From a virus (taxonomy: Duplodnaviria; Caudoviricetes): a stretch of DNA of 64,000 nucleotides. Of this stretch, positions 3,220-59,527 are shown piece by piece. Numbering within the stretch: the stretch's first letter is position 1; every line of letters starts with the position of its first letter. The stretch lies in the IMG/VR virus record IMGVR_UViG_3300016476_001378. The stretch is one strand, 5' to 3'. The notes under the pieces are model-generated. The model saw only the letters and a list, made by a program, of their open reading frames with translations. It had not been told where the DNA came from and ran no database searches. Position numbers and translations under genes: made by a program.

Positions 3220-3245
3220 ATTATAGGGGCCACATTATTTAACCT
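3220..3245 (-). promoter_or_regulatory. Putative phage promoter AGG-N17-TATAAT
   Basis: Exact spacing recurs at 9230-9255, 22669-22694, 44542-44567, 50487-50512 and 61198-61223. Confidence 0.55.
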
Positions 3246-3259
3246 GTATAATAAATACT

Positions 3260-3988
3260 ATGGAAATCATAAGAAAAATCAATGTTATAATACCAATGGC
3301 GGGGCGGGGCAAAAGATTTGAGGACGAAGGTTTCTCAGTCCCAAAGCCTCTGATTAGTGTTAATGGCAAACGAATTATAGAAAGAGTTGTAGAGAATTTA
3401 AATTTATCTGCAAATTACATTTTTGTTGTTCAAGAATCACATAGAAAAATTTATGATTTAGACAAAGTGTTAAAAGACATTGCTCCTGATTGCAAAATAA
3501 TCAGCACAGACGAAGTCACAGAAGGTACAGCCTGTTCAGTTTTACTTGCAAAGAATTTAATCAATAATGACAATCCTCTTTTAATTTGTAATAGCGACCA
3601 GGTTTTAGAATGGGATGCCAAACATTTCGTCTCTTCTGTAATGAAAGAAGGAATCGACGGTGGGATTGTTACTTTTAAATCTAGTGGAAATCAATGGTCT
3701 TTCGCTCAGGTGTTAAATGGTGTTGTCACCAGAGTTGCGGAGAAAAACCCTATTAGCGATAATGCTACAGCTGGTGTTTATTGGTGGGACAGAGGTTCTG
3801 ATTTTGTTATTTTAGCAGAACAGATGATTCGTTTAAATGATAGAACCAATGGTGAATTCTATGTTTGTCCTGTTTATAATTATGCTATAAATGATGGCCT
3901 CAAAATTGTTAATTACGAGATAGAAAAGTTCTGGAATCTCGGAACCCCAAAGGATTTGGAAGTTTATCTTTTAAATCATAATGTATGA
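3260..3988 (+). CDS. Sugar nucleotidyltransferase (dTDP-glucose pyrophosphorylase-like)
   Basis: IIPMAGRGKRF...PKPLI, GTACSVL, EK, LGTPKDL motifs. Confidence 0.85.
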   Translation: MEIIRKINVIIPMAGRGKRFEDEGFSVPKPLISVNGKRIIERVVENLNLSANYIFVVQESHRKIYDLDKVLKDIAPDCKIISTDEVTEGTACSVLLAKNLINNDNPLLICNSDQVLEWDAKHFVSSVMKEGIDGGIVTFKSSGNQWSFAQVLNGVVTRVAEKNPISDNATAGVYWWDRGSDFVILAEQMIRLNDRTNGEFYVCPVYNYAINDGLKIVNYEIEKFWNLGTPKDLEVYLLNHNV

Positions 3989-8313: not shown

Positions 8314-9216
8314 TTACTTTCCTTTAGGTTTTGTAGCCTTGGAATACGCTGGTGTATCCCCACGCATCATTTTAATTATGCGTTGTATATCTAATAAGCC
8401 ACTTCTTAACTGTAAATTTTCAGGTATTGTTGGGTCGTTTAAATTTTTAAATTTATTATTTCTGTCATATTTTTTCACATAAGGCATGAAGAAATCTAAA
8501 CCGCCTAAAATTTTTGGTAATTTAGAAGCATTGCCTTGTGCATTAGGATTACTGAATCCAATGCCTAATTCTTTAATAATTGAATCTATAATAAATTTTG
8601 CATCAGGATCGGTTATTTTATCTATATTGTTCAGATCAAATGTGCTTATTTTATGCATTTGCTCTTCACCACCCGGCATTCCACCTTGCCCATAACCCCA
8701 TGTTTTAGCTTTTCCGAGTGCAAATTTTTCCCCACTAGCTAAACCAAGAAATATCAAACCCCAAGGTTTTAAGGCTGGAATCATGTCATCCAATAAAAAG
8801 CAAACATTTTGAAGTGCAGTTAAAATTTCAATTGCTATCTCTTGTCCTGATGTATCTTCACCAGAGAAAAAAGTATCCCAGTTAAATCTTGAAGCTAAAC
8901 TAGAAGCCTTAATTAAGTTGTCCAACGCATCATAAGCGAACGAAATTTGGAAAGCTTTACTGACATTTGCAGATATTACGGGAGGTATTTTGATAGCACT
9001 CAAGAAATTACTAAATCCTGCTGCTTTTAAAAATGGGCTCAAAGCTTCAACTCTTTGAATAATAAGCTTTAATAATTCTTGCAGACCCTTGGCTTGTGAA
9101 AGCCTAACCATAATATTATGAGCTTTATCAGCTTGCACGTATAAACCTTTATTTTCAAGATTTATAGCAATTTCAAATAATGAATTAATTTCAGTGTTGC
9201 CCATAATTTGCTCCAT
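8314..9216 (-). CDS. Hypothetical protein with N-terminal shared tag
   Basis: 300-aa ORF; AINLENKGLYVQADKAHNIMVRLSQ. Confidence 0.7.
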   Translation of the reverse strand: MEQIMGNTEINSLFEIAINLENKGLYVQADKAHNIMVRLSQAKGLQELLKLIIQRVEALSPFLKAAGFSNFLSAIKIPPVISANVSKAFQISFAYDALDNLIKASSLASRFNWDTFFSGEDTSGQEIAIEILTALQNVCFLLDDMIPALKPWGLIFLGLASGEKFALGKAKTWGYGQGGMPGGEEQMHKISTFDLNNIDKITDPDAKFIIDSIIKELGIGFSNPNAQGNASKLPKILGGLDFFMPYVKKYDRNNKFKNLNDPTIPENLQLRSGLLDIQRIIKMMRGDTPAYSKATKPKGK

Positions 9217-9229
9217 AGTTCACTTATTA

Positions 9230-9255
9230 ATTATAAATAAAAGATAGGGGCCCCT
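9230..9255 (-). promoter_or_regulatory. Putative phage promoter AGG-N17-TATAAT
   Basis: AGGggcccctatcttttattTATAAT on the minus strand. Confidence 0.55.
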
Positions 9256-9328
9256 TGTAAAATTTTATCTTAAAATCGTGAAATAATGCTCTATAGTAGT
9301 AAGTTTTAAGGTTGGGGAGATAAAATTT

Positions 9329-10771
9329 ATGGCTACTATTAAAATTTCACCAGATTTCTTCACAAAGGAAATTTTGAATTACAGTGATTGGCAAAGTGCT
9401 TTTTGGCGCGAGCTGTTTCAGAATTCTATTGATGCTGGCGCTAAGAACATTGAAATTCAAACAGAAGTTTCTCGCAACAATGTTATTGTCACATTTAAAG
9501 ATGATGGCAAGGGCATGGATAAAAAGACTTTGGAAGAAGTATTTTTCAGCCTTGGTTCGACTACAAAGACAAACCAAGATTCTGTTGGTGGCTTTGGTAA
9601 AGCTCGTATTATTTTATGTTTCGCCCAAACTGAATACATGATTAGAACTAATCAACTGTTTGTTCGTGGCTCTGGGGCAGACTATGAAATAGAAGAAGAT
9701 TACAAATATGTAAAAGGTTGTGAATTTTTAATTACAGTTCCAGTTAACAAATTTTATTCAAACCAAGATGCATTTGAAAATTCACTAAAAACTTTCTTAT
9801 CAAGATGTAATTTAAATTGCAAGGTAACAATTAATGGGACAGTCTGGAATAATTGGACAAAACAAAGAGGCAAGGTTCGACAGCTTGACTTTGCAAAAGC
9901 AATCGCTGTAAAAGATGGCGAAAAGAATAGAATTCTTTTCAGGGTAAATGGCTTGTGTATGTTTACAAGATACTCAAGCTACCCAAACTTAGTAATAGTT
10001 GAAATTAACCCCAGTGTATCTAGAAATGTTCTATTGTCAAATAGGGATTCTATTAATTATCATTATTCTGACCAAGTTGATGATTTTATAAATTGTTTAA
10101 ATAATGACAATTTGTCAGCCTTTAGAAATGATGAGGTAATTAATACTATCATCACTGGTAAATCAAGAACATTCAAATCAAAAAGAAAAGCAGTAATAGA
10201 AGCGAGTTATGAATGCGACACACAATCATTCCTTACTAGACCCCAGGGCGAAATTCATTATCAAGTAACAGACATCAATGAAGAAAATGAAGACGATGGC
10301 CTCATAATTGTTACCAAGACGAATGACGCAAAAATCAAGCGAGCCTCACGTTCTTTTAAGCCAGACAACATGGAAGATAAAAGCCGCAAGAAAAAGCTCT
10401 TAAATCAATGGATTATAGCCTGTGAGTACGCTTTAGAATCTTATTGCCACTTAACAGCCAAGGAAGAAATGAGTTGGAGGCCAGGTTTGGTCTTTGACAA
10501 AGATGTAGAGGCTTGCCACCAGAAGCAAGAAGATAATTCGCATGCTTTGATGTTAAATCCAATCTTTTGTTCTGGTGAAAATTTAGGAAAGATTAAATTT
10601 TCTTTAAATAATTTTGGCGACCATGTAAAGCTGTTAACTTTGGCTGCTCACGAGGTAGCACACTGCTCTAGAAGCTATCATGATGAGACTTATGCCAACT
10701 TATTCACTGATATAGTGGCTGATTTGATGCAGAATGTTAACAAAGTCAGCAAGGAAATGAAGCTGGCTTAG
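9329..10771 (+). CDS. GHKL (HATPase_c) ATPase with C-terminal HEXXH metallopeptidase-like motif
   Basis: RELFQNSIDAGA, DDGKGM, GSTTK, GGFGKA; C-terminal AAHEVAH...H. Confidence 0.75.
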   Translation: MATIKISPDFFTKEILNYSDWQSAFWRELFQNSIDAGAKNIEIQTEVSRNNVIVTFKDDGKGMDKKTLEEVFFSLGSTTKTNQDSVGGFGKARIILCFAQTEYMIRTNQLFVRGSGADYEIEEDYKYVKGCEFLITVPVNKFYSNQDAFENSLKTFLSRCNLNCKVTINGTVWNNWTKQRGKVRQLDFAKAIAVKDGEKNRILFRVNGLCMFTRYSSYPNLVIVEINPSVSRNVLLSNRDSINYHYSDQVDDFINCLNNDNLSAFRNDEVINTIITGKSRTFKSKRKAVIEASYECDTQSFLTRPQGEIHYQVTDINEENEDDGLIIVTKTNDAKIKRASRSFKPDNMEDKSRKKKLLNQWIIACEYALESYCHLTAKEEMSWRPGLVFDKDVEACHQKQEDNSHALMLNPIFCSGENLGKIKFSLNNFGDHVKLLTLAAHEVAHCSRSYHDETYANLFTDIVADLMQNVNKVSKEMKLA

Positions 10772-14367: not shown

Positions 14368-15873
14368 TTATTGGGGCCCCATTTTATTTACCTCTTCTAG
14401 AAAGCTTAAAGCTGACCTGATTAAATCATACCTTTCGGTATAAACAGCTTGCTTCATGATGTCAATTGGTGAAATAACTTCGCCACTAAGAACCGCCTTC
14501 AAAATAGAAGGAGAGCAACCAGAAACAAGACAAGTGCCTGTATCATGAATTGTCATAGGAACATTTGCAGCTCCATTAACATTCCAGAAAATAAGATCTG
14601 GCATCTTGTAATTATACTTAGCATAATTCTTTTTGATTTGTTCAAAATTGGTTCTACTATTTGAATTACATGCTTGATCAAATTGCATATCAGAAACGAT
14701 AAAGATCTTTTCTGGCATGTCTTCTGGTGCAACACTATCAGCCTTTGCAGCCTTAAGAATGCTCTTGAATACAGCAACCAAGTTTGTATTATAACCCCAT
14801 TCAGCTTGTTTAAGATTATTGGTCTTATCTACAATTGTGTGACCAATAATGGTTTGCATTTCTGGAGCTTCAGAAAATGTAATAAATTTATTTTTCCATA
14901 CTCCAGAATTTTTCTCAGCTATATAAATTGCCAAAGAAATACTAACATCAATTGGCCTAACATTTCCATTGGCCAACATCATGGATCCAGATGTGTCCGC
15001 TACAACTAAACCTTTGAATGATTTACCTTCCATGTAATCTGGAAGATTCTGCCAAAGAGCTTGAAGAGCAAGTTCTTCTGTTGGATCAACACGGCCATAA
15101 GTTTCCCTTACCTTTTCTACAATTTCATAAGGATAAAGTGCAGAAGCATTAACTTTATTTTCAAGCTTTACAGCTGAAAGCATAAATTGATTATATCTCT
15201 CAAGATCATGTTTCATGAATGACTTGCGATACATCAGGCCAGCCTTGGAAGGGACCTTAGAATAATCAATTTCTGACCAATTATTTGAGCACATTTTATG
15301 CTCTACAAGGTCAATCTTCTTGCGAAGCTTGCTAAGCATTAAGCGGTATTCTTTTTCAGAAAGACCTAAGCGCTTTGCAAATTGTCTTCCAAGAGACTTG
15401 GTCGCTTTTGAAGAAGCATTGATAGACGGCATCCACTTGGCCAAAAGTGATGGATGCTCTGTTTCTGGGTCGTTGTCATGATTCAATTTTGATATAACAA
15501 AATCTACTACACGATTCCAGTCAATACAGCCATCAAGCACGAAGAGATCATCCCAGCGCCCATAAATAGGTACTAAAGGAATAATTGCTTGGCGAATTTC
15601 AAAAGGTGTGTTGAGAAGAAGATGGCGAAATACTTTTCGCTCACCCTGACCGCCACGAATGTCTCTGCTGTTAAACAGGATACGAAGTGCAGTTTCAGGA
15701 TCTTCTTCTAAAGCTCTAAGATAAAGAGCTGTAATGGCATCTGGATCTGTTCTAGATGCAGAAATCTTACCAAATAGATCTACATTAAGATCTAAAGTGG
15801 ATTTATAAGCTTTGGCCCCATTTGTAGTTTCAGTGGAATTAAGTTGTTTTTCCAAAGCATAAATAAAAGACAT
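14368..15873 (-). CDS. DUF2828 family protein (Ro60/TROVE-like helical domain plus vWA)
   Basis: TTNGAKAY, RDIRGGQGER, YGRWDDL, AKWMPS, IDYSKVPS; vWA MIDAS DTSGSM, WGYNTN, SDMQFD, FWNV, VSGCSP. Likely start ATG 15873 (GGAAAG SD). Confidence 0.88.
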   Translation of the reverse strand: MSFIYALEKQLNSTETTNGAKAYKSTLDLNVDLFGKISASRTDPDAITALYLRALEEDPETALRILFNSRDIRGGQGERKVFRHLLLNTPFEIRQAIIPLVPIYGRWDDLFVLDGCIDWNRVVDFVISKLNHDNDPETEHPSLLAKWMPSINASSKATKSLGRQFAKRLGLSEKEYRLMLSKLRKKIDLVEHKMCSNNWSEIDYSKVPSKAGLMYRKSFMKHDLERYNQFMLSAVKLENKVNASALYPYEIVEKVRETYGRVDPTEELALQALWQNLPDYMEGKSFKGLVVADTSGSMMLANGNVRPIDVSISLAIYIAEKNSGVWKNKFITFSEAPEMQTIIGHTIVDKTNNLKQAEWGYNTNLVAVFKSILKAAKADSVAPEDMPEKIFIVSDMQFDQACNSNSRTNFEQIKKNYAKYNYKMPDLIFWNVNGAANVPMTIHDTGTCLVSGCSPSILKAVLSGEVISPIDIMKQAVYTERYDLIRSALSFLEEVNKMGPQ

Positions 15874-15889
15874 TTTTGTTTTTCTTTCC

Positions 15890-16115
15890 AAGATGATTTT
15901 TGTTTAAATTTCAAGTTTAAAGTTTTATTTGCTGAATCATCTTTATTTGTTTTGGGTTTTGCTCGTTACTAGATAATTTTTAATTGTCCTTAGTAATTGT
16001 AATCGCTGAATTATCTTGAGCGGGGTGGTGCAGCTTTGCATTAAATTACGAGATGGGTTTTGCTCAGCTGCACCGATCTTTATTTATGTTTTATAAAGAG
16101 TTGCTGAACCATCTC
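15890..16115 (-). ncRNA. Array of three CAGC-bulge hairpin units upstream of the DUF2828 gene
   Basis: Units 15890-15943, 15971-16016 and 16050-16115; each AGATRRTT-CAGCRA...inner hairpin...complementary arm, with compensatory changes between units; TATAAT at 16122-16127. Confidence 0.7.
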
Positions 16116-20147: not shown

Positions 20148-20179
20148 AAAATAAAACCGCCTTTCGGCGGTTTTATTTT
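20148..20179. terminator. Bidirectional intrinsic terminator
   Basis: aaaataaaaccgcc-tttc-ggcggttttatttt between convergent genes. Confidence 0.8.
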
Positions 20180-20304
20180 TTATGTGAATCAAAGCATTTT
20201 TCAGCTTCAGATTTAAGCAAGTATTGCTTGCCACACTCTTTACAAGCGTAATTCATCACCTGGAGCCAACCCATGCTGTTCTTCTGTACTGTTTTTGTTT
20301 CCAT
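20173..20304 (-). CDS. 43-aa zinc-finger-like microprotein (CxxC-x12-C-x3-H)
   Basis: Not in the ORF track. METKTVQKNSMGWLQVMNYACKECGKQYLLKSEAEKCFDSHKK; TGTATAAT 8 nt upstream of the ATG. Confidence 0.6.
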   Translation of the reverse strand: METKTVQKNSMGWLQVMNYACKECGKQYLLKSEAEKCFDSHKK

Positions 20305-20321
20305 GATAACTAATTATACAG

Positions 20322-20351
20322 AAAGCCCCCTTAAATTAATAAGGGGGCTTT
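20322..20351 (-). terminator. Intrinsic terminator
   Basis: aaagccccctta/taagggggcttt. Confidence 0.75.
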
Positions 20352-20357
20352 TATTTC

Positions 20358-20540
20358 TGAAGCCTGCGCGACTTCACTCAACCAACCGTTTCAACACCCT
20401 CCTCAAGGCCCCATCTCTCCTTGATAGCAAGCGAAATAGCTTAAAATACTTGCCTTAGAGTTTGTTAAAATAACCTCGGTGTAATAAGGAGTCTCGCAAT
20501 AAGAGGGTGGCAAGACTCAACCGACAATTGGTTCTTTCTG
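20358..20540 (-). ncRNA. Unidentified structured ncRNA (~185 nt; multi-stem, possible pseudoknot; 6S-like fold also possible)
   Basis: Closing helix 20524-33/20380-89; hairpin 20510-18/20489-97 whose loop is complementary to 20395-403; further stems; TACAAT upstream (20547-52) and terminator downstream. Confidence 0.55.
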
Positions 20541-20597
20541 TTTGCTATTGTACTCATTCAAGAATATTACAAGTTTTTTTGAAAAAACCTGCTTATC

Positions 20598-21200
20598 TTA
20601 CTCGCTAATTTTTCTTTCAGGTGGAGTAACGATATTATCAATGACTCCATAAGCTTTAGCTTCTGTAGCACTCATCCAATAATCTCTCTCACAGTCTCTT
20701 TTGACTTTCTTTTTATCTTGCTTTGTATGCTTCGACAGAATGTCTAAAAGTTGGTCATAGAGCTTGTTTGTTTCTGCAACTTGAATGTTGATGTCTGCAG
20801 CAGTGCCTTGGAATCCACTAGAAACTTGGTGAATCATGACTCTTGAATGCTGTAGGCAGCTCCTTGTTCCAGTGCCTCCAGCGAGTAGAACAGCTCCCAT
20901 AGATGCCGCAGATGCAAGGCAGGTTGTATTTACAGGAGAATCCATGAGTTGCATGACATCGTAGATGCCAAGTCCAGCACTAACACTACCTCCAGGACTA
21001 TTGATATAGAATTCAATTGGGAGACCCTTGGAACCCTTATCATGGTCAAGAAATAGGAATTGGGCGATGATCACACCTGCGGTCTGATCATTTACTTCAT
21101 CGTTAAGAATAACGATTCTGTCTTTAAGCAAACGGGAGAAGAGGTCATAAGAACGCTCTCCTCCCAATGGTGATTGTTCAACAACGTATGGTATTAACAT
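20598..21200 (-). CDS. clpP: ATP-dependent Clp protease proteolytic subunit
   Basis: YDLFSRLLKDRI, YINSPGGSV, AASMGA (Ser), MIHQ (His), ERD (Asp). Confidence 0.95.
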   Translation of the reverse strand: MLIPYVVEQSPLGGERSYDLFSRLLKDRIVILNDEVNDQTAGVIIAQFLFLDHDKGSKGLPIEFYINSPGGSVSAGLGIYDVMQLMDSPVNTTCLASAASMGAVLLAGGTGTRSCLQHSRVMIHQVSSGFQGTAADINIQVAETNKLYDQLLDILSKHTKQDKKKVKRDCERDYWMSATEAKAYGVIDNIVTPPERKISE

Positions 21201-21505: not shown

Positions 21506-22633
21506 TTAACCCTTGACCCAGAATTCAATAACATTATTGTCTATACCATAAGTATCTGCAATAGTTACACTTATTATACTGGTAAATGTTGATGCACCTG
21601 TAGATGTAATGTCAAAAAGTGTATCTTGCAATGTGTCAACTGGCATAGAGATAGTAGAAGAATAAGTTGTTCCATCAGCTCTACCTAAGACCAAAGTTAC
21701 AGGGAAAGTGGTAATGCCAGAAGGCATAGAGCCAGATGTAACATCAAATTTGTTCTTCATTACTAAAGCAGAATTTAATGAGATGGTCTTGTCTGCTACA
21801 AAAGAGCCCCATGCTCCAGAGGTTTTAGTAACAGAACCTAATTTGACAACTAATTCTTCATTCATAGATGAACGCCAAAGTGTTCTAAAGTTTTCTGACC
21901 ATACTGTGCTTACCAATGCATAAGCATCTTTAAAATAGGTTTTGAAACTTGCTCCGTACTGGGCGCTATAAAATGTATTCAAACCACTACAAACACTACC
22001 AAAGCTTGAATTTAATGTAATAGGAAGATTGATTTCAAGAGCTCTAGCTGTATTAATAAGAGTTTTAGCATTGTCAAATTCAGATTCAGTTTTCAAATCA
22101 TCAAAGCCTTTTCTAAATTCCTTAAGAAGGAATGAAGAAGTAGAACCTGATGGATACTCGCTAAATACGAGAGGTGTACTGCCAAGAGTTGGGTTTCCAC
22201 CTGACTGCAAGAAGAATACTTTATTCTCATTGACGGAACCCGACATTACTCTGACCTTAGAGAAATCTAAAATCTCAGAAGATGTGTCAAAATCAGATGC
22301 TCTTGTCAAAACATAAGGTGTGATAGTTGTAAGGATGTAGATGCCATTTTCATAACCATTGCTTTGATTCTTGACAAGAATTCTCTTACCAATGTCGAGT
22401 GACTGATTTAAAATGATGGTATCAACTGTTAAGTAACTTGCGCCAGTGATTGTTTTTGCACTGTTGTTATAAGTGCCTGTAAGCGCAGCGGTAGTAGCAA
22501 GTACAACGTCGTCAAGGTCGTATGTTGTAACATCTTCTGTCTGTGAGCGCAAAAGATTGTCAGCATCGCCAAGATAAGTTGTTAATGTGATGATTTGATT
22601 AAGATCTGCAGCAGAAGCATTACTGAATGACAT
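21506..22633 (-). CDS. Putative virion structural / tail-fibre-like protein
   Basis: Thr/Ser-rich; RILVKNQSNGYENGIY...LTRASDFD block typical of phage fibre proteins. Confidence 0.65.
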   Translation of the reverse strand: MSFSNASAADLNQIITLTTYLGDADNLLRSQTEDVTTYDLDDVVLATTAALTGTYNNSAKTITGASYLTVDTIILNQSLDIGKRILVKNQSNGYENGIYILTTITPYVLTRASDFDTSSEILDFSKVRVMSGSVNENKVFFLQSGGNPTLGSTPLVFSEYPSGSTSSFLLKEFRKGFDDLKTESEFDNAKTLINTARALEINLPITLNSSFGSVCSGLNTFYSAQYGASFKTYFKDAYALVSTVWSENFRTLWRSSMNEELVVKLGSVTKTSGAWGSFVADKTISLNSALVMKNKFDVTSGSMPSGITTFPVTLVLGRADGTTYSSTISMPVDTLQDTLFDITSTGASTFTSIISVTIADTYGIDNNVIEFWVKG

Positions 22634-22738: not shown

Positions 22739-23290
22739 TTAATTAAATTTGCTTTTTAAATCATTTAGCGCGTCAGGTGGAACTCCTGACAAACTAACAT
22801 TTGTTATTCTTCCATCTGGAGCCTTTAAAACAAGATTATTCTCTGTGAGAGAATCTACCATAAGATAAGGTATGTTCTCATCATTTGTGGGAATTAAAGC
22901 GCCAGGTGAAACATAATTATGCAAAACCTTATCGCCCATGCGAGTTTCCAACACTGCACTAACAGTTCCATTAAACATAATTCCAGTTAGGCCATAATTA
23001 AAGCTTGGCAAGGGAATCTCTGCTTGTTGTCGGGGAGTTAATTTAGTTTCTGGAAAAGTAACCGAACTTCTTTTGGCTGAAATTTCAGTTAATTCTAGTT
23101 TGGGCTTTGCTTCAAAAGGATCGCTGCGCCAATCTTTTGCTTCTACCCTTAATGGTTCGAAAGCTTTTTTGCTCGGTTGAACTACTTGCGGGTCTGATGT
23201 AGTGGTTACTACAGGTGGATTATAAAAACAGCCACCTAGAAGAAATAAGAAGAGCGTAGCGTATTTTTTAAAAATTTCGCCCGCCACCAA
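22739..23290 (-). CDS. Putative lipoprotein, PilP/GspC-like
   Basis: Lipobox-like KKYATLFLFLLGGC; RSDPF and LTGIM...AVLE beta-domain reminiscent of PilP; coupled to the STN gene. Confidence 0.5.
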   Translation of the reverse strand: MVAGEIFKKYATLFLFLLGGCFYNPPVVTTTSDPQVVQPSKKAFEPLRVEAKDWRSDPFEAKPKLELTEISAKRSSVTFPETKLTPRQQAEIPLPSFNYGLTGIMFNGTVSAVLETRMGDKVLHNYVSPGALIPTNDENIPYLMVDSLTENNLVLKAPDGRITNVSLSGVPPDALNDLKSKFN

Positions 23291-23951
23291 AGCCTCCTAT
23301 ACCACCGTTCATTCCGCCGAAGGCTCCACCGCCACCGCCAAAGCCTCCCATTGCTCCTCCGCCCATTCCATTACCGTTGCCCATTCCAGCGCCTCCAAAA
23401 CCTCCCATAGAGCCACCCCCAAGGCCGCCAGCAGAACCGAAGCCACCACCGAAACCTCCATTGCCTATTCCTCCACCGCTAAATCTTGTAAATTGACTAA
23501 TGTTTAAAATGGGGCCTAATACAACTTGCAGATCAAATGGATCAATATAAACAAGAGGTATTCTTTCCCATGTAAGAGAGTTAATAGTCACAGATGGAAT
23601 TGGATCTGGTCCAGCAGTCTGTGGAACAGGAGTGATAACTCTTACCTTTACAATGTAAACATTGTTCTCTTTGGTATAGGTCAAAGGCTCAGTAGCTGCT
23701 CTCATGATTAGCTTTAAAGCATTTTCAAAAGGCTGGTCTGTAATTGTCATGGTAACAAAACCAGCAACATTGTTGTCAATAACAAAGTTATTAATGCCAG
23801 CTTGCTTGAAAGCCATCTCGAGAGTAGTTCTAATTGGAGCATCTTTCAGATCCAATGTAATACTAGGAGTGTTGGCACTCTGTGCAAATGTCGCCTTTGG
23901 CATAAGAACAAGAGAAAAACCAAATAATAAAACCAATAAAACTTTTTTCAT
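23268..23951 (-). CDS. Secreted STN (secretin/TonB N-terminal) domain protein with Gly-rich tail
   Basis: Signal peptide; ITLDLKDAPIRTTL...VAGFVTMTITDQPFENALKLI...YTKENNVYIV; GGFGG repeats. Confidence 0.75.
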   Translation of the reverse strand: MKKVLLVLLFGFSLVLMPKATFAQSANTPSITLDLKDAPIRTTLEMAFKQAGINNFVIDNNVAGFVTMTITDQPFENALKLIMRAATEPLTYTKENNVYIVKVRVITPVPQTAGPDPIPSVTINSLTWERIPLVYIDPFDLQVVLGPILNISQFTRFSGGGIGNGGFGGGFGSAGGLGGGSMGGFGGAGMGNGNGMGGGAMGGFGGGGGAFGGMNGGIGGFGGGRNF

Positions 23952-41071: not shown

Positions 41072-41447
41072 CGGACCCGGGCGGACTCGAACCGCCGTCT
41101 TACGTGCATCTTAAAAAAGCATCTACAAGCTTAGTATAAATTTTAATTTAATTAAAGAGGCCCCTTTATACTAGGTTCTCATTAACTAGCCCTGCTATAC
41201 TAATTGTTAATCTTAGAGCAGCAAATTAACAATTGTCAGCTATAAATAACGCAGAATTTCAGTCTAGCTGAAAACTTCATTCCACGGCTGAGTTAAATAC
41301 TCAGGCTGCGATCGCATACGCAGAAGCGTTGCGAGCTGTTGCAAAGTTATTGTTTGCATTTATTGTTTTCTTCGGGTTTAACGAGGCCACCGAACACCTC
41401 GACTTGCAGCTTAATCTCCCTGCCCGCAATCTACTCCAATCGAGCCC
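41072..41447 (-). ncRNA. ssrA: tmRNA; tag ORF 41357-41301 encodes ANNNFATARNASAYAIAA
   Basis: 5' GGGCTCG pairs with 3' CGGGTCC including G3-U70; T-arm GGCGG-TTCGAGT-CCGCC; ATAAAT-GCA resume context; tag ends in AA. Confidence 0.93.
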
Positions 41448-50545: not shown

Positions 50546-52381
<1,836 letters not shown>

Positions 52382-57771: not shown

Positions 57772-58656
57772 ATGAGTGAAAAATGGGGCACAGCCTGTGG
57801 TGTTTGGGGCGATATAATTGTTGGTCTTGGACTTTTTCTTGACCGAGTTGGTAAGGGTAACATTTTATATCTTGGCAACAGTGATGAGATTGTTGAATTT
57901 TTAGAATGCCAGCCTTTTATTAATAAAGTTAAAAAATTACCTTTGCCAGAGGAAGAATGGAAGAGGTATTGGATCTACACAGTTTTTAATTATGACTGGC
58001 AAAAAGATCCAGGCTACAGTATTAGGCCTATCGACCCCTTTTTAAGAATGGGTTACAGAAGTAGCGAAGTAGAAATCACTCATCTACACTATGATGTTTG
58101 TGACCCCAATCATCCAATGTATCAATGGCATGGGGTTAAGCTGCCCCAACACATTGAAGACTGGGCGGATGAAGAAGCCAAGAAGCTACCAGAGAATTTT
58201 TATTTATTTCAGCCCTATAGCTTCAACAGCAACAATCCCCACGATCACTGGCCTATCTGGCCTGAATTATGTAATGCCATTACCACAAGAACTAATAAGA
58301 AGCTGGTATTAATAGGACACAAATGGTATCCAGAGATTGAAAGAAGATCATCAGTGATGTTCAAATCTCCTATGATAGCTGATTACTATAGTAATGTGCC
58401 CAGCATGATGCACATTTTTGCACTTGCAAAAAGATCTGTTGGTGTAATTACAACAAGTAATAGTTTAGCCCACTGGTGCCAAATTGCTGACATACCTTGT
58501 ACGGTAATTTGCAATAGAAAAAGTTCAAGGCCAGACTATATCTTTAGAAGAGTATTAGTCTGGCCCACTTTAAAATTAGTCAACTTTGACGATGATCTAG
58601 AGACTGCTTATAATGCTGTTGGAGAAGGTGTTTTCTCTGCAGAAAAATTTATTTAG
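57772..58656 (+). CDS. GT9 (heptosyltransferase)-like protein
   Basis: GVWGDI, FQPYS, W..W..L, ITTSNSLAHW...IP. Confidence 0.6.
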   Translation: MSEKWGTACGVWGDIIVGLGLFLDRVGKGNILYLGNSDEIVEFLECQPFINKVKKLPLPEEEWKRYWIYTVFNYDWQKDPGYSIRPIDPFLRMGYRSSEVEITHLHYDVCDPNHPMYQWHGVKLPQHIEDWADEEAKKLPENFYLFQPYSFNSNNPHDHWPIWPELCNAITTRTNKKLVLIGHKWYPEIERRSSVMFKSPMIADYYSNVPSMMHIFALAKRSVGVITTSNSLAHWCQIADIPCTVICNRKSSRPDYIFRRVLVWPTLKLVNFDDDLETAYNAVGEGVFSAEKFI

Positions 58657-59527
58657 AGGCTTCTCTATTTAAGAAACAGCTTCTGTGGTCTGCATTATGG
58701 AGAAGTTCTGCTTCTTTTGTCTTAGGCTCAACAGGCACTCCCCATTCTCTCCTGCCATGGTGTGAGAGAATCAAATGCAAAATGTGTTCTCTCTTATCTT
58801 GTGGAAAATCAGGAATTTTGACAATTTCTTCATGGACCCAAAAAGCACTTGAACAGAGATGGGGAATCAGTTTGCCGCTTTCTGAGATAACATAATCATA
58901 ATTGTCATTGACTTGAATTTCATCAATCTTGCCAATGTCATGCAACAAGGCTGCTGCTATAAGAACATCATAATCAAGTTTATCATAGATCTTTAAATCA
59001 TGCCTGATAAACTTACATACTTCAACTGTGTGGTCTAAGAGACCATGGGTATAAGCATGATGAATGCCTTTTGCTGCTGGCCACATGACAAATTTCTCTC
59101 TTAAGCGGCCTTGGGAACCTAAAAGATTAGCAACCATCAATTGAATAGAAGTATCTGTAATGGTCTCAATAAGTTTATCAAGTGTGGCTACCAATTCTGG
59201 ATAAGGCCTGGATGCTATTTGAAAATAAGGAGATAAATCTTCTGGTGGTGATACTATGTCAACGCTTTGTGCCTTGACATTTACCATGCCCTTAAAAGAC
59301 TCAACCTTGCCCTTGATTCTGACAAACTTATTCTTTTCTAAATCAGTTACAATGTTTTTGCATGCTGCTTCTGGAAAATCAAATAGCATAACAGACATTT
59401 CACCGCTCAGATCTTTGATTATAAGCTTGACCCAATTATTGCCATTGTTATTCTTGTGCTCATAAAAAGAGACGAAAGAAATCATGTCCACTGCATTACC
59501 AGGGGCTAAATCGGCTATACGAACCAT
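58649..59527 (-). CDS. yhaM: YhaM/Cbf1 3'-5' exoribonuclease (OB plus HD)
   Basis: OB fold (KDLSG..., KGKVESFKG); PAAKGIHHAYTHGLLDH, LLHDIGK, ILSHHG..EWG.P..P.T.EA.LLH.AD. Confidence 0.88.
   Translation of the reverse strand: MVRIADLAPGNAVDMISFVSFYEHKNNNGNNWVKLIIKDLSGEMSVMLFDFPEAACKNIVTDLEKNKFVRIKGKVESFKGMVNVKAQSVDIVSPPEDLSPYFQIASRPYPELVATLDKLIETITDTSIQLMVANLLGSQGRLREKFVMWPAAKGIHHAYTHGLLDHTVEVCKFIRHDLKIYDKLDYDVLIAAALLHDIGKIDEIQVNDNYDYVISESGKLIPHLCSSAFWVHEEIVKIPDFPQDKREHILHLILSHHGRREWGVPVEPKTKEAELLHNADHRSCFLNREASK

Follow-up and report, generated by a model that had tools for sequence, protein, structure and literature searches.

What is encoded in the gap behind the clpP gene of a large uncultured phage? 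We addressed this question in a stretch of 64,000 nucleotides (nt) from a virus of the Caudoviricetes (IMG/VR record IMGVR_UViG_3300016476_001378), hereafter called the window, which is part of a large phage genome and encodes clpP, Hsp70, transfer-messenger RNA (tmRNA), prepilins and a Ro60-like DUF2828 gene. On the minus strand, the locus is flanked by clpP (20598-21200) and an open reading frame (ORF) of 43 amino acids (20173-20304). A reading of the letters alone, the original prediction, had placed a stand-alone, highly structured non-coding RNA here and had suggested that it might mimic 6S RNA. The best overall explanation, to which we assign a probability of about 0.5, is that the locus encodes a new structured non-coding RNA of ~235 nt, restricted to one clade, made from the minus strand (~20558-20320) and acting in trans. 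The parts of this reading differ in strength: a real, conserved structured RNA is present almost beyond doubt, and on balance it is probably a separate RNA species rather than only the 3′ untranslated region (UTR) of clpP. The family is undescribed, having no relative in Rfam; as a kind, an orphan structured phage RNA behind a gene is not new. Large uncultured phages hold many folded RNAs, any well-defined family of which gives access to new RNA biology. This one is unusually well defined for a metagenomic RNA, with a fixed address, at least 12 lineages, two junctions plus a pseudoknot and three invariant loops.

Fold, covariation and strand

The fold predicted by comparison of relatives is two stacked three-way junctions plus a pseudoknot, comprising helices P1 to P5 and then P6 and the terminator. 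The elements upstream of the terminator are as follows.

20543..20552, minus strand: 5′ strand of the pseudoknot (AAUAGC at 20544-20549), where box B (TACAAT, 20552-20547) overlaps AAUAGCA
20525..20533, minus strand: 5′ strand of P1, the covarying closing helix, AACCAAUUG
20477..20523, minus strand: variable domain P2, with base CGGU/ACCG and a hairpin of GAGUCUUGC and GCGAGACUC around the loop CACCCUCUUAUU
20457..20470, minus strand: 5′ strand of P3, UUUUAACA-AA-CUCU
20426..20454, minus strand: hairpin P4, GGCAAGU and GCUUGCU around AUUUUAAGCUAUUUC, with loop positions 20435-20440 (GCUAUU) as the 3′ strand of the pseudoknot
20403..20424, minus strand: hairpin P5, UCAAGG and CCUUGA around AGAGAUGGGG, with a Shine–Dalgarno (SD)-like AAGGAG and then AUG
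20389..20402, minus strand: 3′ strand of P3, GGAG-GG-UGUUGAAA, which includes AGGAGGGUG
20380..20388, minus strand: 3′ strand of P1, CGGUUGGUU
20358..20376, minus strand: hairpin P6, UGAAGUC and GGCUUCA around GCGCA, with the invariant tip GUCGCGCAG and a covarying lower stem

The core of the fold (four helices) was tested on a 16-sequence MAFFT alignment (A3), in which 87.9% of cells were paired and 15 of the 32 pairs had changed on both sides. Covariation among homologues was clear, with a score of 0.41 versus 0.245 in shuffled alignments, none of 500 of which scored as high (a control that overstates significance, as the sequences are interrelated), and versus at most 0.15 when partners were slid by one to three columns, a fairer control that is also clearly separated. 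RNAalifold independently recovered P3, P4 and P5. A realignment was fitted to a covariance model (R1), and the plain MAFFT alignment, which is independent of that model, gave nearly equal numbers. The 3′ two-thirds of the RNA aligned well; the 5′ domain varied in sequence and length and was misaligned by MAFFT, and P1 was therefore tabulated separately, anchored on the conserved CCA/CUA.

Helix by helix, compensation was widespread. The core of P1, 8 base pairs (bp) long, was paired in 123 of 128 cells, and its pair type switched at four positions (AU/GC/UA, CG/UA, AU/UA/UG and GC/UA/AU; for example CG:9/UA:7 and AU:7/UA:7/UG:2); the helix also holds three invariant base pairs, and in 9 of 12 lineages at most 9% of shuffles gave a helix of equal length. 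P2, of 26-73 nt, forms a stem in every lineage, with a tip that is branched or bulged and with differing sequences; a UCC(U)CG or CCCUC motif occupies the tip in 8 of 12. P3 comprises 11-12 bp, and nine of the 12 pairs tested were doubly changed (for example UA:10/CG:6 and CG:6/UA:6), with 85% of cells paired. It opens into a tight three-way junction with P4 and P5, whose joints are AA, A and none. The seven pairs of P4 were 96% paired, three of them doubly changed (UA:9/CG:6, AU:11/GC:5), around an invariant loop GCUAUUU. P6 was out of register on A3, where its loop length varies, hence its scoring after the R1 realignment: 82% of cells were paired and four of seven pairs doubly changed (GC:8/AU:7), beneath the invariant tip GUC-GCGCA-GRC. 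P5 (UCAAGG and CCUUGA around AGAGAUGGG(G)) was identical in all 16 sequences save for GGG or GGGG in the loop; in the lineage L059/L060, C replaces the first U.

The pairings first proposed from the letters fared unevenly in this comparison. Compensatory changes in relatives bear out AACCAATTGT/ACGGTTGGTT (P1), GCAAGT/GCTTGC (P4) and TGAAGTC/GGCTTCA (P6). The hairpin TCAAGG/CCTTGA (P5) is present and, because it is invariant, uninformative for covariation, and GAGTCTTGC/GCGAGACTC is a real hairpin that lies within the lineage-variable domain P2. The proposed GAG-GTTA/TAAC-CTC helix clashes with the conserved P3.

The pseudoknot joins the 5′ tail to the P4 loop. AAUAGCA is the exact complement of UGCUAUU in that loop, and the two form 6-8 contiguous pairs in all 16 sequences. 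Only one pair varies: 13 of 15 aligned sequences have C-G, L013 has U.G and L016 has U-A. Between lineages the helix swaps one end pair for one at the opposite end.

A different long-range pairing had led to the 6S proposal: the loop CACCCUCUU was held to pair with the distal AGGAGGGUG, as a pseudoknot or as a rod with a central bubble, and the RNA, as a 6S mimic, was suggested to be able to sequester host sigma70-RNA polymerase. The complementarity itself stands, with 9 bp, a duplex of -15.2 kcal/mol and only 2% of shuffles matching it, but it is confined to the window and its near-twin L050; nothing above chance was found in the other 10 lineages, and AGGAGGGUG is the 3′ strand of the covarying P3. 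The similar size (~200 nt) favours a 6S mimic, as does the rod-like alternative fold, which can be drawn in the window lineage alone. 6S RNAs (RF00013 and relatives) are likewise abundant stand-alone RNAs of similar length with their own terminator. They are, however, long rods whose central bubble imitates an open promoter, whereas the fold backed by covariation (P1, P3, P4 and P6) and the pseudoknot is branched and has no central bubble. No 6S family was matched in the window or nine relatives, even at E values up to 10. The structure thus largely refutes a 6S mimic, which we regard as scarcely credible.

The strength of the fold agreed with the comparative result. Folded as RNA, the minus strand had a minimum free energy of -76.8 kcal/mol (z -4.35; all 200 shuffles folded less well), and the plus strand was weaker (z -2.24); in the window, a model built solely from the conserved helices reached -75.0 kcal/mol, compared with a minimum of -77.2 kcal/mol. 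The covarying helices contain many G.U pairs (for example UG:12, GU:7 and UG:9), which would become A.C mismatches on the other strand, indicating that the RNA strand is the minus strand. On this point, as on the positions and sequences of TACAAT (20552-20547) and the terminator (20351-20322) and on a structured non-coding RNA that ends in that terminator, the original prediction was borne out.

Its claim that the element contains no credible ORF also held. The longest frames, of 20-65 amino acids, vary between lineages in strand, frame and ends, and no conservation of reading frame, start or stop was found among the relatives. Since there is no conserved ORF and the 1-nt GGG/GGGG indel sits within the most conserved stretch, we consider the element non-coding. 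Its description as a GC-richer island was weak, the GC content being 0.38-0.42 at the locus versus 0.43-0.50 inside clpP.

Distribution and comparison with known RNAs

Relatives of this ClpP (79-99% identical) are numerous in metagenome assemblies, mostly freshwater, on contigs of up to 369 kb, and a single ClpP variant has index entries in 167 sample blocks. DNA flanking the homologous clpP genes was retrieved through exact matches to their protein sequences, and metagenome contigs were searched for the word of the invariant hairpin. Every fetched locus whose ClpP was at least ~79% identical carried a homologue of the RNA just behind clpP (nhmmer E 1e-11 to 1e-84; model R1); a 77% variant was not included in the locus comparison. 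The lineages that carry the RNA just behind clpP number at least 12 and are clearly diverged; each locus has one copy, and the 64-kb window contains no second one. Among these lineages the flanking proteins have diverged to 33-81% identity.

Outside this group the RNA was absent. ClpP relatives at 69-70% identity (including L026, L061 and L062) had no RNA behind clpP and another gene context, HSP20 - clpP - IMPDH with NusG and a sigma-70 gene nearby; at 73% identity the contig stops 100 nt past clpP and is therefore uninformative. The RNA was likewise absent from IMG/VR clpP relatives (42-51% identical), and model R1 found no match in a complete 288-kb and a partial 154-kb ClpP-bearing phage. 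A blastn search of the locus against 50,697 phage records gave no match, the window having no DNA relative among deposited phage genomes. The invariant P5 word gave nine matches in IMG/VR and its pattern two in species genomes, all by chance, and a literature search returned nothing on this RNA. Together, these results indicate that the RNA is confined to a single clade of uncultured giant phages from freshwater.

No known family accounted for it. At gathering thresholds, Rfam matched only the tmRNA elsewhere in the window and nothing in nine relatives; at permissive thresholds (E up to 10), the locus and nine homologous loci gave only terminator-driven chance matches, no family recurring at the RNA. 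The fallback offered with the 6S proposal, an RNA class without a known counterpart, is therefore the one that stands. Like GOLLD (RF02032), ROOL (RF03087), Proteo-phage-1 (RF03044) and T4 rnaC/rnaD, the RNA is phage-borne, non-coding and lineage-restricted with a complex, covarying fold. Unlike them, it shows no similarity in sequence or model to any of these, and it is far smaller than GOLLD or ROOL and has a fixed place behind clpP rather than in a transfer RNA island. With phi29 pRNA (RF00044) it shares a tight three-way junction with near-zero joints and a short loop complementarity that could in principle be intermolecular. It differs in that no model match was found, in that pRNA comes from the genome end of small protein-primed podoviruses, and in that the complementarity here is intramolecular, linking the 5′ tail to a loop.

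Start and end of the RNA

Whether the RNA has its own transcription unit depends on the following features at its borders.

20598..21200, minus strand: clpP, directly upstream of the RNA, with stop TAA at 20598-20600 (Pfam CLP_protease, 7.6e-64)
20574..20592, minus strand: upstream element GCAGG-T6-C-A7, a near-palindrome close behind the clpP stop
20564..20569, minus strand: box A, a -10-like hexamer, TAATAT here and TATAAT, TAGAAT or TAATAG in relatives
20322..20351, minus strand: intrinsic terminator hairpin, AAAGCCCCCUUA/UAAGGGGGCUUU, -20.8 kcal/mol in the window

The upstream element starts right after the clpP stop or no more than a few bases later (TAA-GCAGG in most lineages) and has the form GCAGG-T/A6-8-G/C-A6-8. 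Each locus of every lineage has a single copy, invariably a short way upstream of the RNA, and no other copy lies in the 64-kb window. We considered it as a general phage promoter motif and rejected this, since it is found at the RNA locus only; it is probably part of a promoter (UP/-35 region) or an operator palindrome, though it might instead be an RNA element. Box A keeps its position in all lineages, and the 7-13 nt downstream of it vary in sequence and length. From its position, transcription would start near 20556-20558. The TACAAT hexamer had been taken as the left boundary and -10 box; since the overlapping AAUAGCA pairs with the P4 loop in all members and is thus taken to be part of the RNA, TACAAT cannot be the -10 box of a pseudoknot-bearing transcript, and box A is better placed.

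At the other end, a terminator of -20 to -25 kcal/mol follows in 12 of 12 lineages. The stems differ (CCCCC/GGGGG, CCUCCUC/GAGGAGG, GCCUCC/GGGAGGC) and lead into UUU(C/U)UGU, indicating that the predicted terminator is kept by compensatory change. A simple terminator scan missed the hairpin because its stem runs into the A and U tracts. Together, these features are consistent with an RNA made from its own promoter, consisting of the GCAGG-T/A-tract element and the TAATAT/TATAAT box, supplemented by read-through from clpP, and ending at its own terminator. The stand-alone transcript first proposed is plausible.

The same features bear on another explanation, in which the element is a structured clpP 3′ UTR without its own promoter, serving as a cis stabiliser or 3′-end module or as the source of a processed small RNA (sRNA). 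The element lies close behind the clpP stop in all lineages, the first terminator after clpP is the RNA's own and no canonical -35 is seen, all of which such a UTR would explain. Two -10-like boxes and a locus-specific upstream element at fixed positions, with 7-13 nt between the boxes that vary as they would around a start, argue otherwise. In addition, the invariant loops and pseudoknot exceed what a stabilising 3′ hairpin needs, and the ClpP relatives at 69-70% identity do without the RNA. We therefore consider a mere 3′ UTR unlikely. sRNA genes embedded in 3′ UTRs and sharing the terminator of the gene are made either from an internal promoter (DapZ and MicL types) or by processing (CpxQ and SroC types). 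The present RNA resembles them in lying close behind a stop codon and sharing the sole terminator behind the gene, and its -10-like boxes suggest an internal promoter. Those sRNAs, however, are short, simply folded and Hfq-dependent with a linear seed, whereas this RNA has ~235 nt, two three-way junctions, a pseudoknot and invariant loops.

Several points weigh against a separate, trans-acting RNA. Besides the inflated shuffle control described above, P1 is only 6 bp long in L011 and L041, where it is no better than chance, and 7 bp in L020, where it is likewise not longer than most shuffles. The putative pseudoknot is backed by invariant complementarity and a single compensated position. No TTGACA-like -35 accompanies the two candidate -10 boxes, and no terminator (hairpin plus U tract) was found between the clpP stop and the RNA, meaning that transcripts reading through from clpP must include the RNA as well. 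Both ends of the RNA, and transcription itself, are features that we infer from the DNA sequence. Finally, the idea that the RNA binds a protein or another RNA in trans, for which the pattern of conservation is the whole basis, is tentative and in our view falls somewhat short of an even chance.

Invariant loops, candidate partners and neighbouring genes

In the trans-acting RNA proposed here, the distribution of change suggests the mode of action: the invariant residues lie in hairpin loops and the surrounding helices covary. A scaffold locked by the pseudoknot would display three unchanging single-stranded sequences, namely the P5 loop AGAGAUGGG(G) with its SD-like AAGGAG and AUG, the P6 tip GUC-GCGCA-GRC, and GCUAUUUC in the P4 loop. 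These may be docking sites for a protein or another RNA, and candidate partners would be the 43-amino-acid zinc-finger protein, the Ro60-like DUF2828 protein or a component of host translation or transcription. The helices drift by compensation, the joints are near-empty, the three loops are fixed and the neighbouring proteins diverge, a pattern suggesting a rigid scaffold that presents recognition sites rather than a junction ligand pocket, and the three invariant loops point to a specific partner. The GCGCA pentaloop of P6 fits the GNRNA pattern of lambdoid boxB loops. A search of the window for operators resembling P5 or P6 found none elsewhere. Separately, an exact 10-nt complement of the invariant P5 loop, CCCCATCTCT, lies at 58855-58864 on the minus strand, in the sense strand of the ORF at 58649-59527; ~0.1 such matches are expected by chance.

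A bolder version, which we hold to be doubtful, is that the RNA is one half of a phage takeover particle, its scaffold showing a translation-start mimic (the AAGGAG + AUG hairpin) and a boxB-like GCGCA pentaloop. Such an RNA would trap the 30S subunit, a translational repressor or a transcription elongation factor, or might instead organise the phage zinc-finger or Ro60-like protein. Since the carrier phages are common in lakes, transcript ends and abundance should be readable from existing lake metatranscriptomes, and the RNA is of a size suited to probing, pull-downs and structural studies.

Invariant nucleotides in a multi-junction fold locked by a pseudoknot are likewise typical of catalytic and small-molecule-binding RNAs, and phages carry many ribozymes; the RNA could accordingly be a self-cleaving ribozyme of a new type or a trans-acting aptamer. 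None of the ribozyme and riboswitch models matched, however, the invariant residues are in apical loops and not in the junctions, and the 165-220 nt before the terminator exceed the known small self-cleavers. We regard this explanation as very improbable.

A role in cis would require a gene behind the RNA, where the window has the following unit.

20173..20320, minus strand: predicted next transcription unit, with the extended -10 TGTATAAT (20313-20320), 8 nt and then the ATG of the 43-amino-acid zinc-finger ORF (20173-20304)

This ORF has the spacing Y-x-C-x2-C-x3-Y-x8-C-x3-H of a single classical zinc finger with C2CH ligands, and its only Pfam match (zf-Tnp_2) is below threshold. It stands directly behind the RNA, with 56-91% identity, in every lineage but L008 and L038/L039. 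Behind the terminator, TGTATAA(T/A) is kept 7-9 nt before the next ATG in nearly all lineages. TGTATAAT followed by 7-8 nt and ATG is also found at ORF 3260 (3245-3262, plus strand), and this copy and the one behind the RNA (20302-20320, minus strand) both come just after a terminator-like hairpin. The two arrangements look like extended -10 promoters that would yield leaderless or near-leaderless messenger RNAs.

These data speak to the proposal that the RNA is a cis leader, either a riboswitch or a protein-dependent attenuator, gating the zinc-finger ORF and, in some lineages, a gene of 242-248 amino acids behind it. A complex fold, a terminator and then a same-strand ORF is a riboswitch-like layout, the zinc-finger ORF follows in nearly all lineages, and the L020, L023 and L059 lineages couple it to a second gene. 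However, L008-L010 keep the RNA and terminator and then run into the end of a convergent gene, with no gene behind, and L038/L039 have a different downstream gene. The conserved TGTATAAT box between terminator and ATG, in a pattern that recurs at another gene, also argues against a leader. Moreover, the 5′ arm of the terminator had no upstream partner that beat shuffles in the 12 lineages (6-93% of shuffles were as good), conserved junctions are the usual site of ligand pockets and here the junctions are nearly empty, and no riboswitch or aptamer family was matched in the Rfam scans of the window and nine relatives. Such a leader therefore appears improbable.

The remaining neighbour of interest is a DUF2828/DUF7788 protein gene (14368-15891, minus strand), which corresponds to phrog_850, "RNA-binding protein", is Ro60/TROVE-like and lies 4.4 kb downstream of the RNA. 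In L049 the DUF2828 gene is at 9065-10531, 6 kb from the RNA. The RNA might thus be a Y-RNA-like partner that tethers or gates this protein, as bacterial Y RNAs do for Rsr. It resembles the Y RNA and YrlA-Ro60 (Rsr) systems in having a TROVE-like protein encoded nearby and a sequence-conserved helix that closes a structured module; the three invariant P1 pairs are unusual in a helix that would do no more than close the module. An unrelated 154-kb IMG/VR phage also has clpP and DUF2828 as neighbours, a few kb apart (L064, with the DUF2828 gene at G002:C1:38211-39584). That phage, however, has the DUF2828 protein and no match to the RNA model, and the gap behind its DUF2828 gene has content unrelated to the RNA. 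Furthermore, no Y_RNA or YrlA model matched the window or nine relatives at E up to 10, P1 is internal and not built from the two ends of the RNA, and no transfer RNA-like T arm is conserved. We consider a Y-RNA-like role decidedly improbable.

Other features of the window were noted in passing. About half of its ORFs are preceded, 6-9 nt from the start, by a ribosome-binding site of the GGAGA(U/C)A type (for example 50546-52336, 9329-10771 and 23268-23951), and many others have no such site. The tmRNA gene (41072-41447, minus strand; 123 bits in Rfam) encodes the tag peptide ANNNFATARNASAYAIAA and shares the genome with clpP and Hsp70. Two genes upstream of clpP, a 375-amino-acid protein (21506-22633, minus strand) contains an Ig-like segment that matches head-decoration and tail-fibre families of PHROGs; its gene is kept upstream of clpP in all RNA-bearing lineages.

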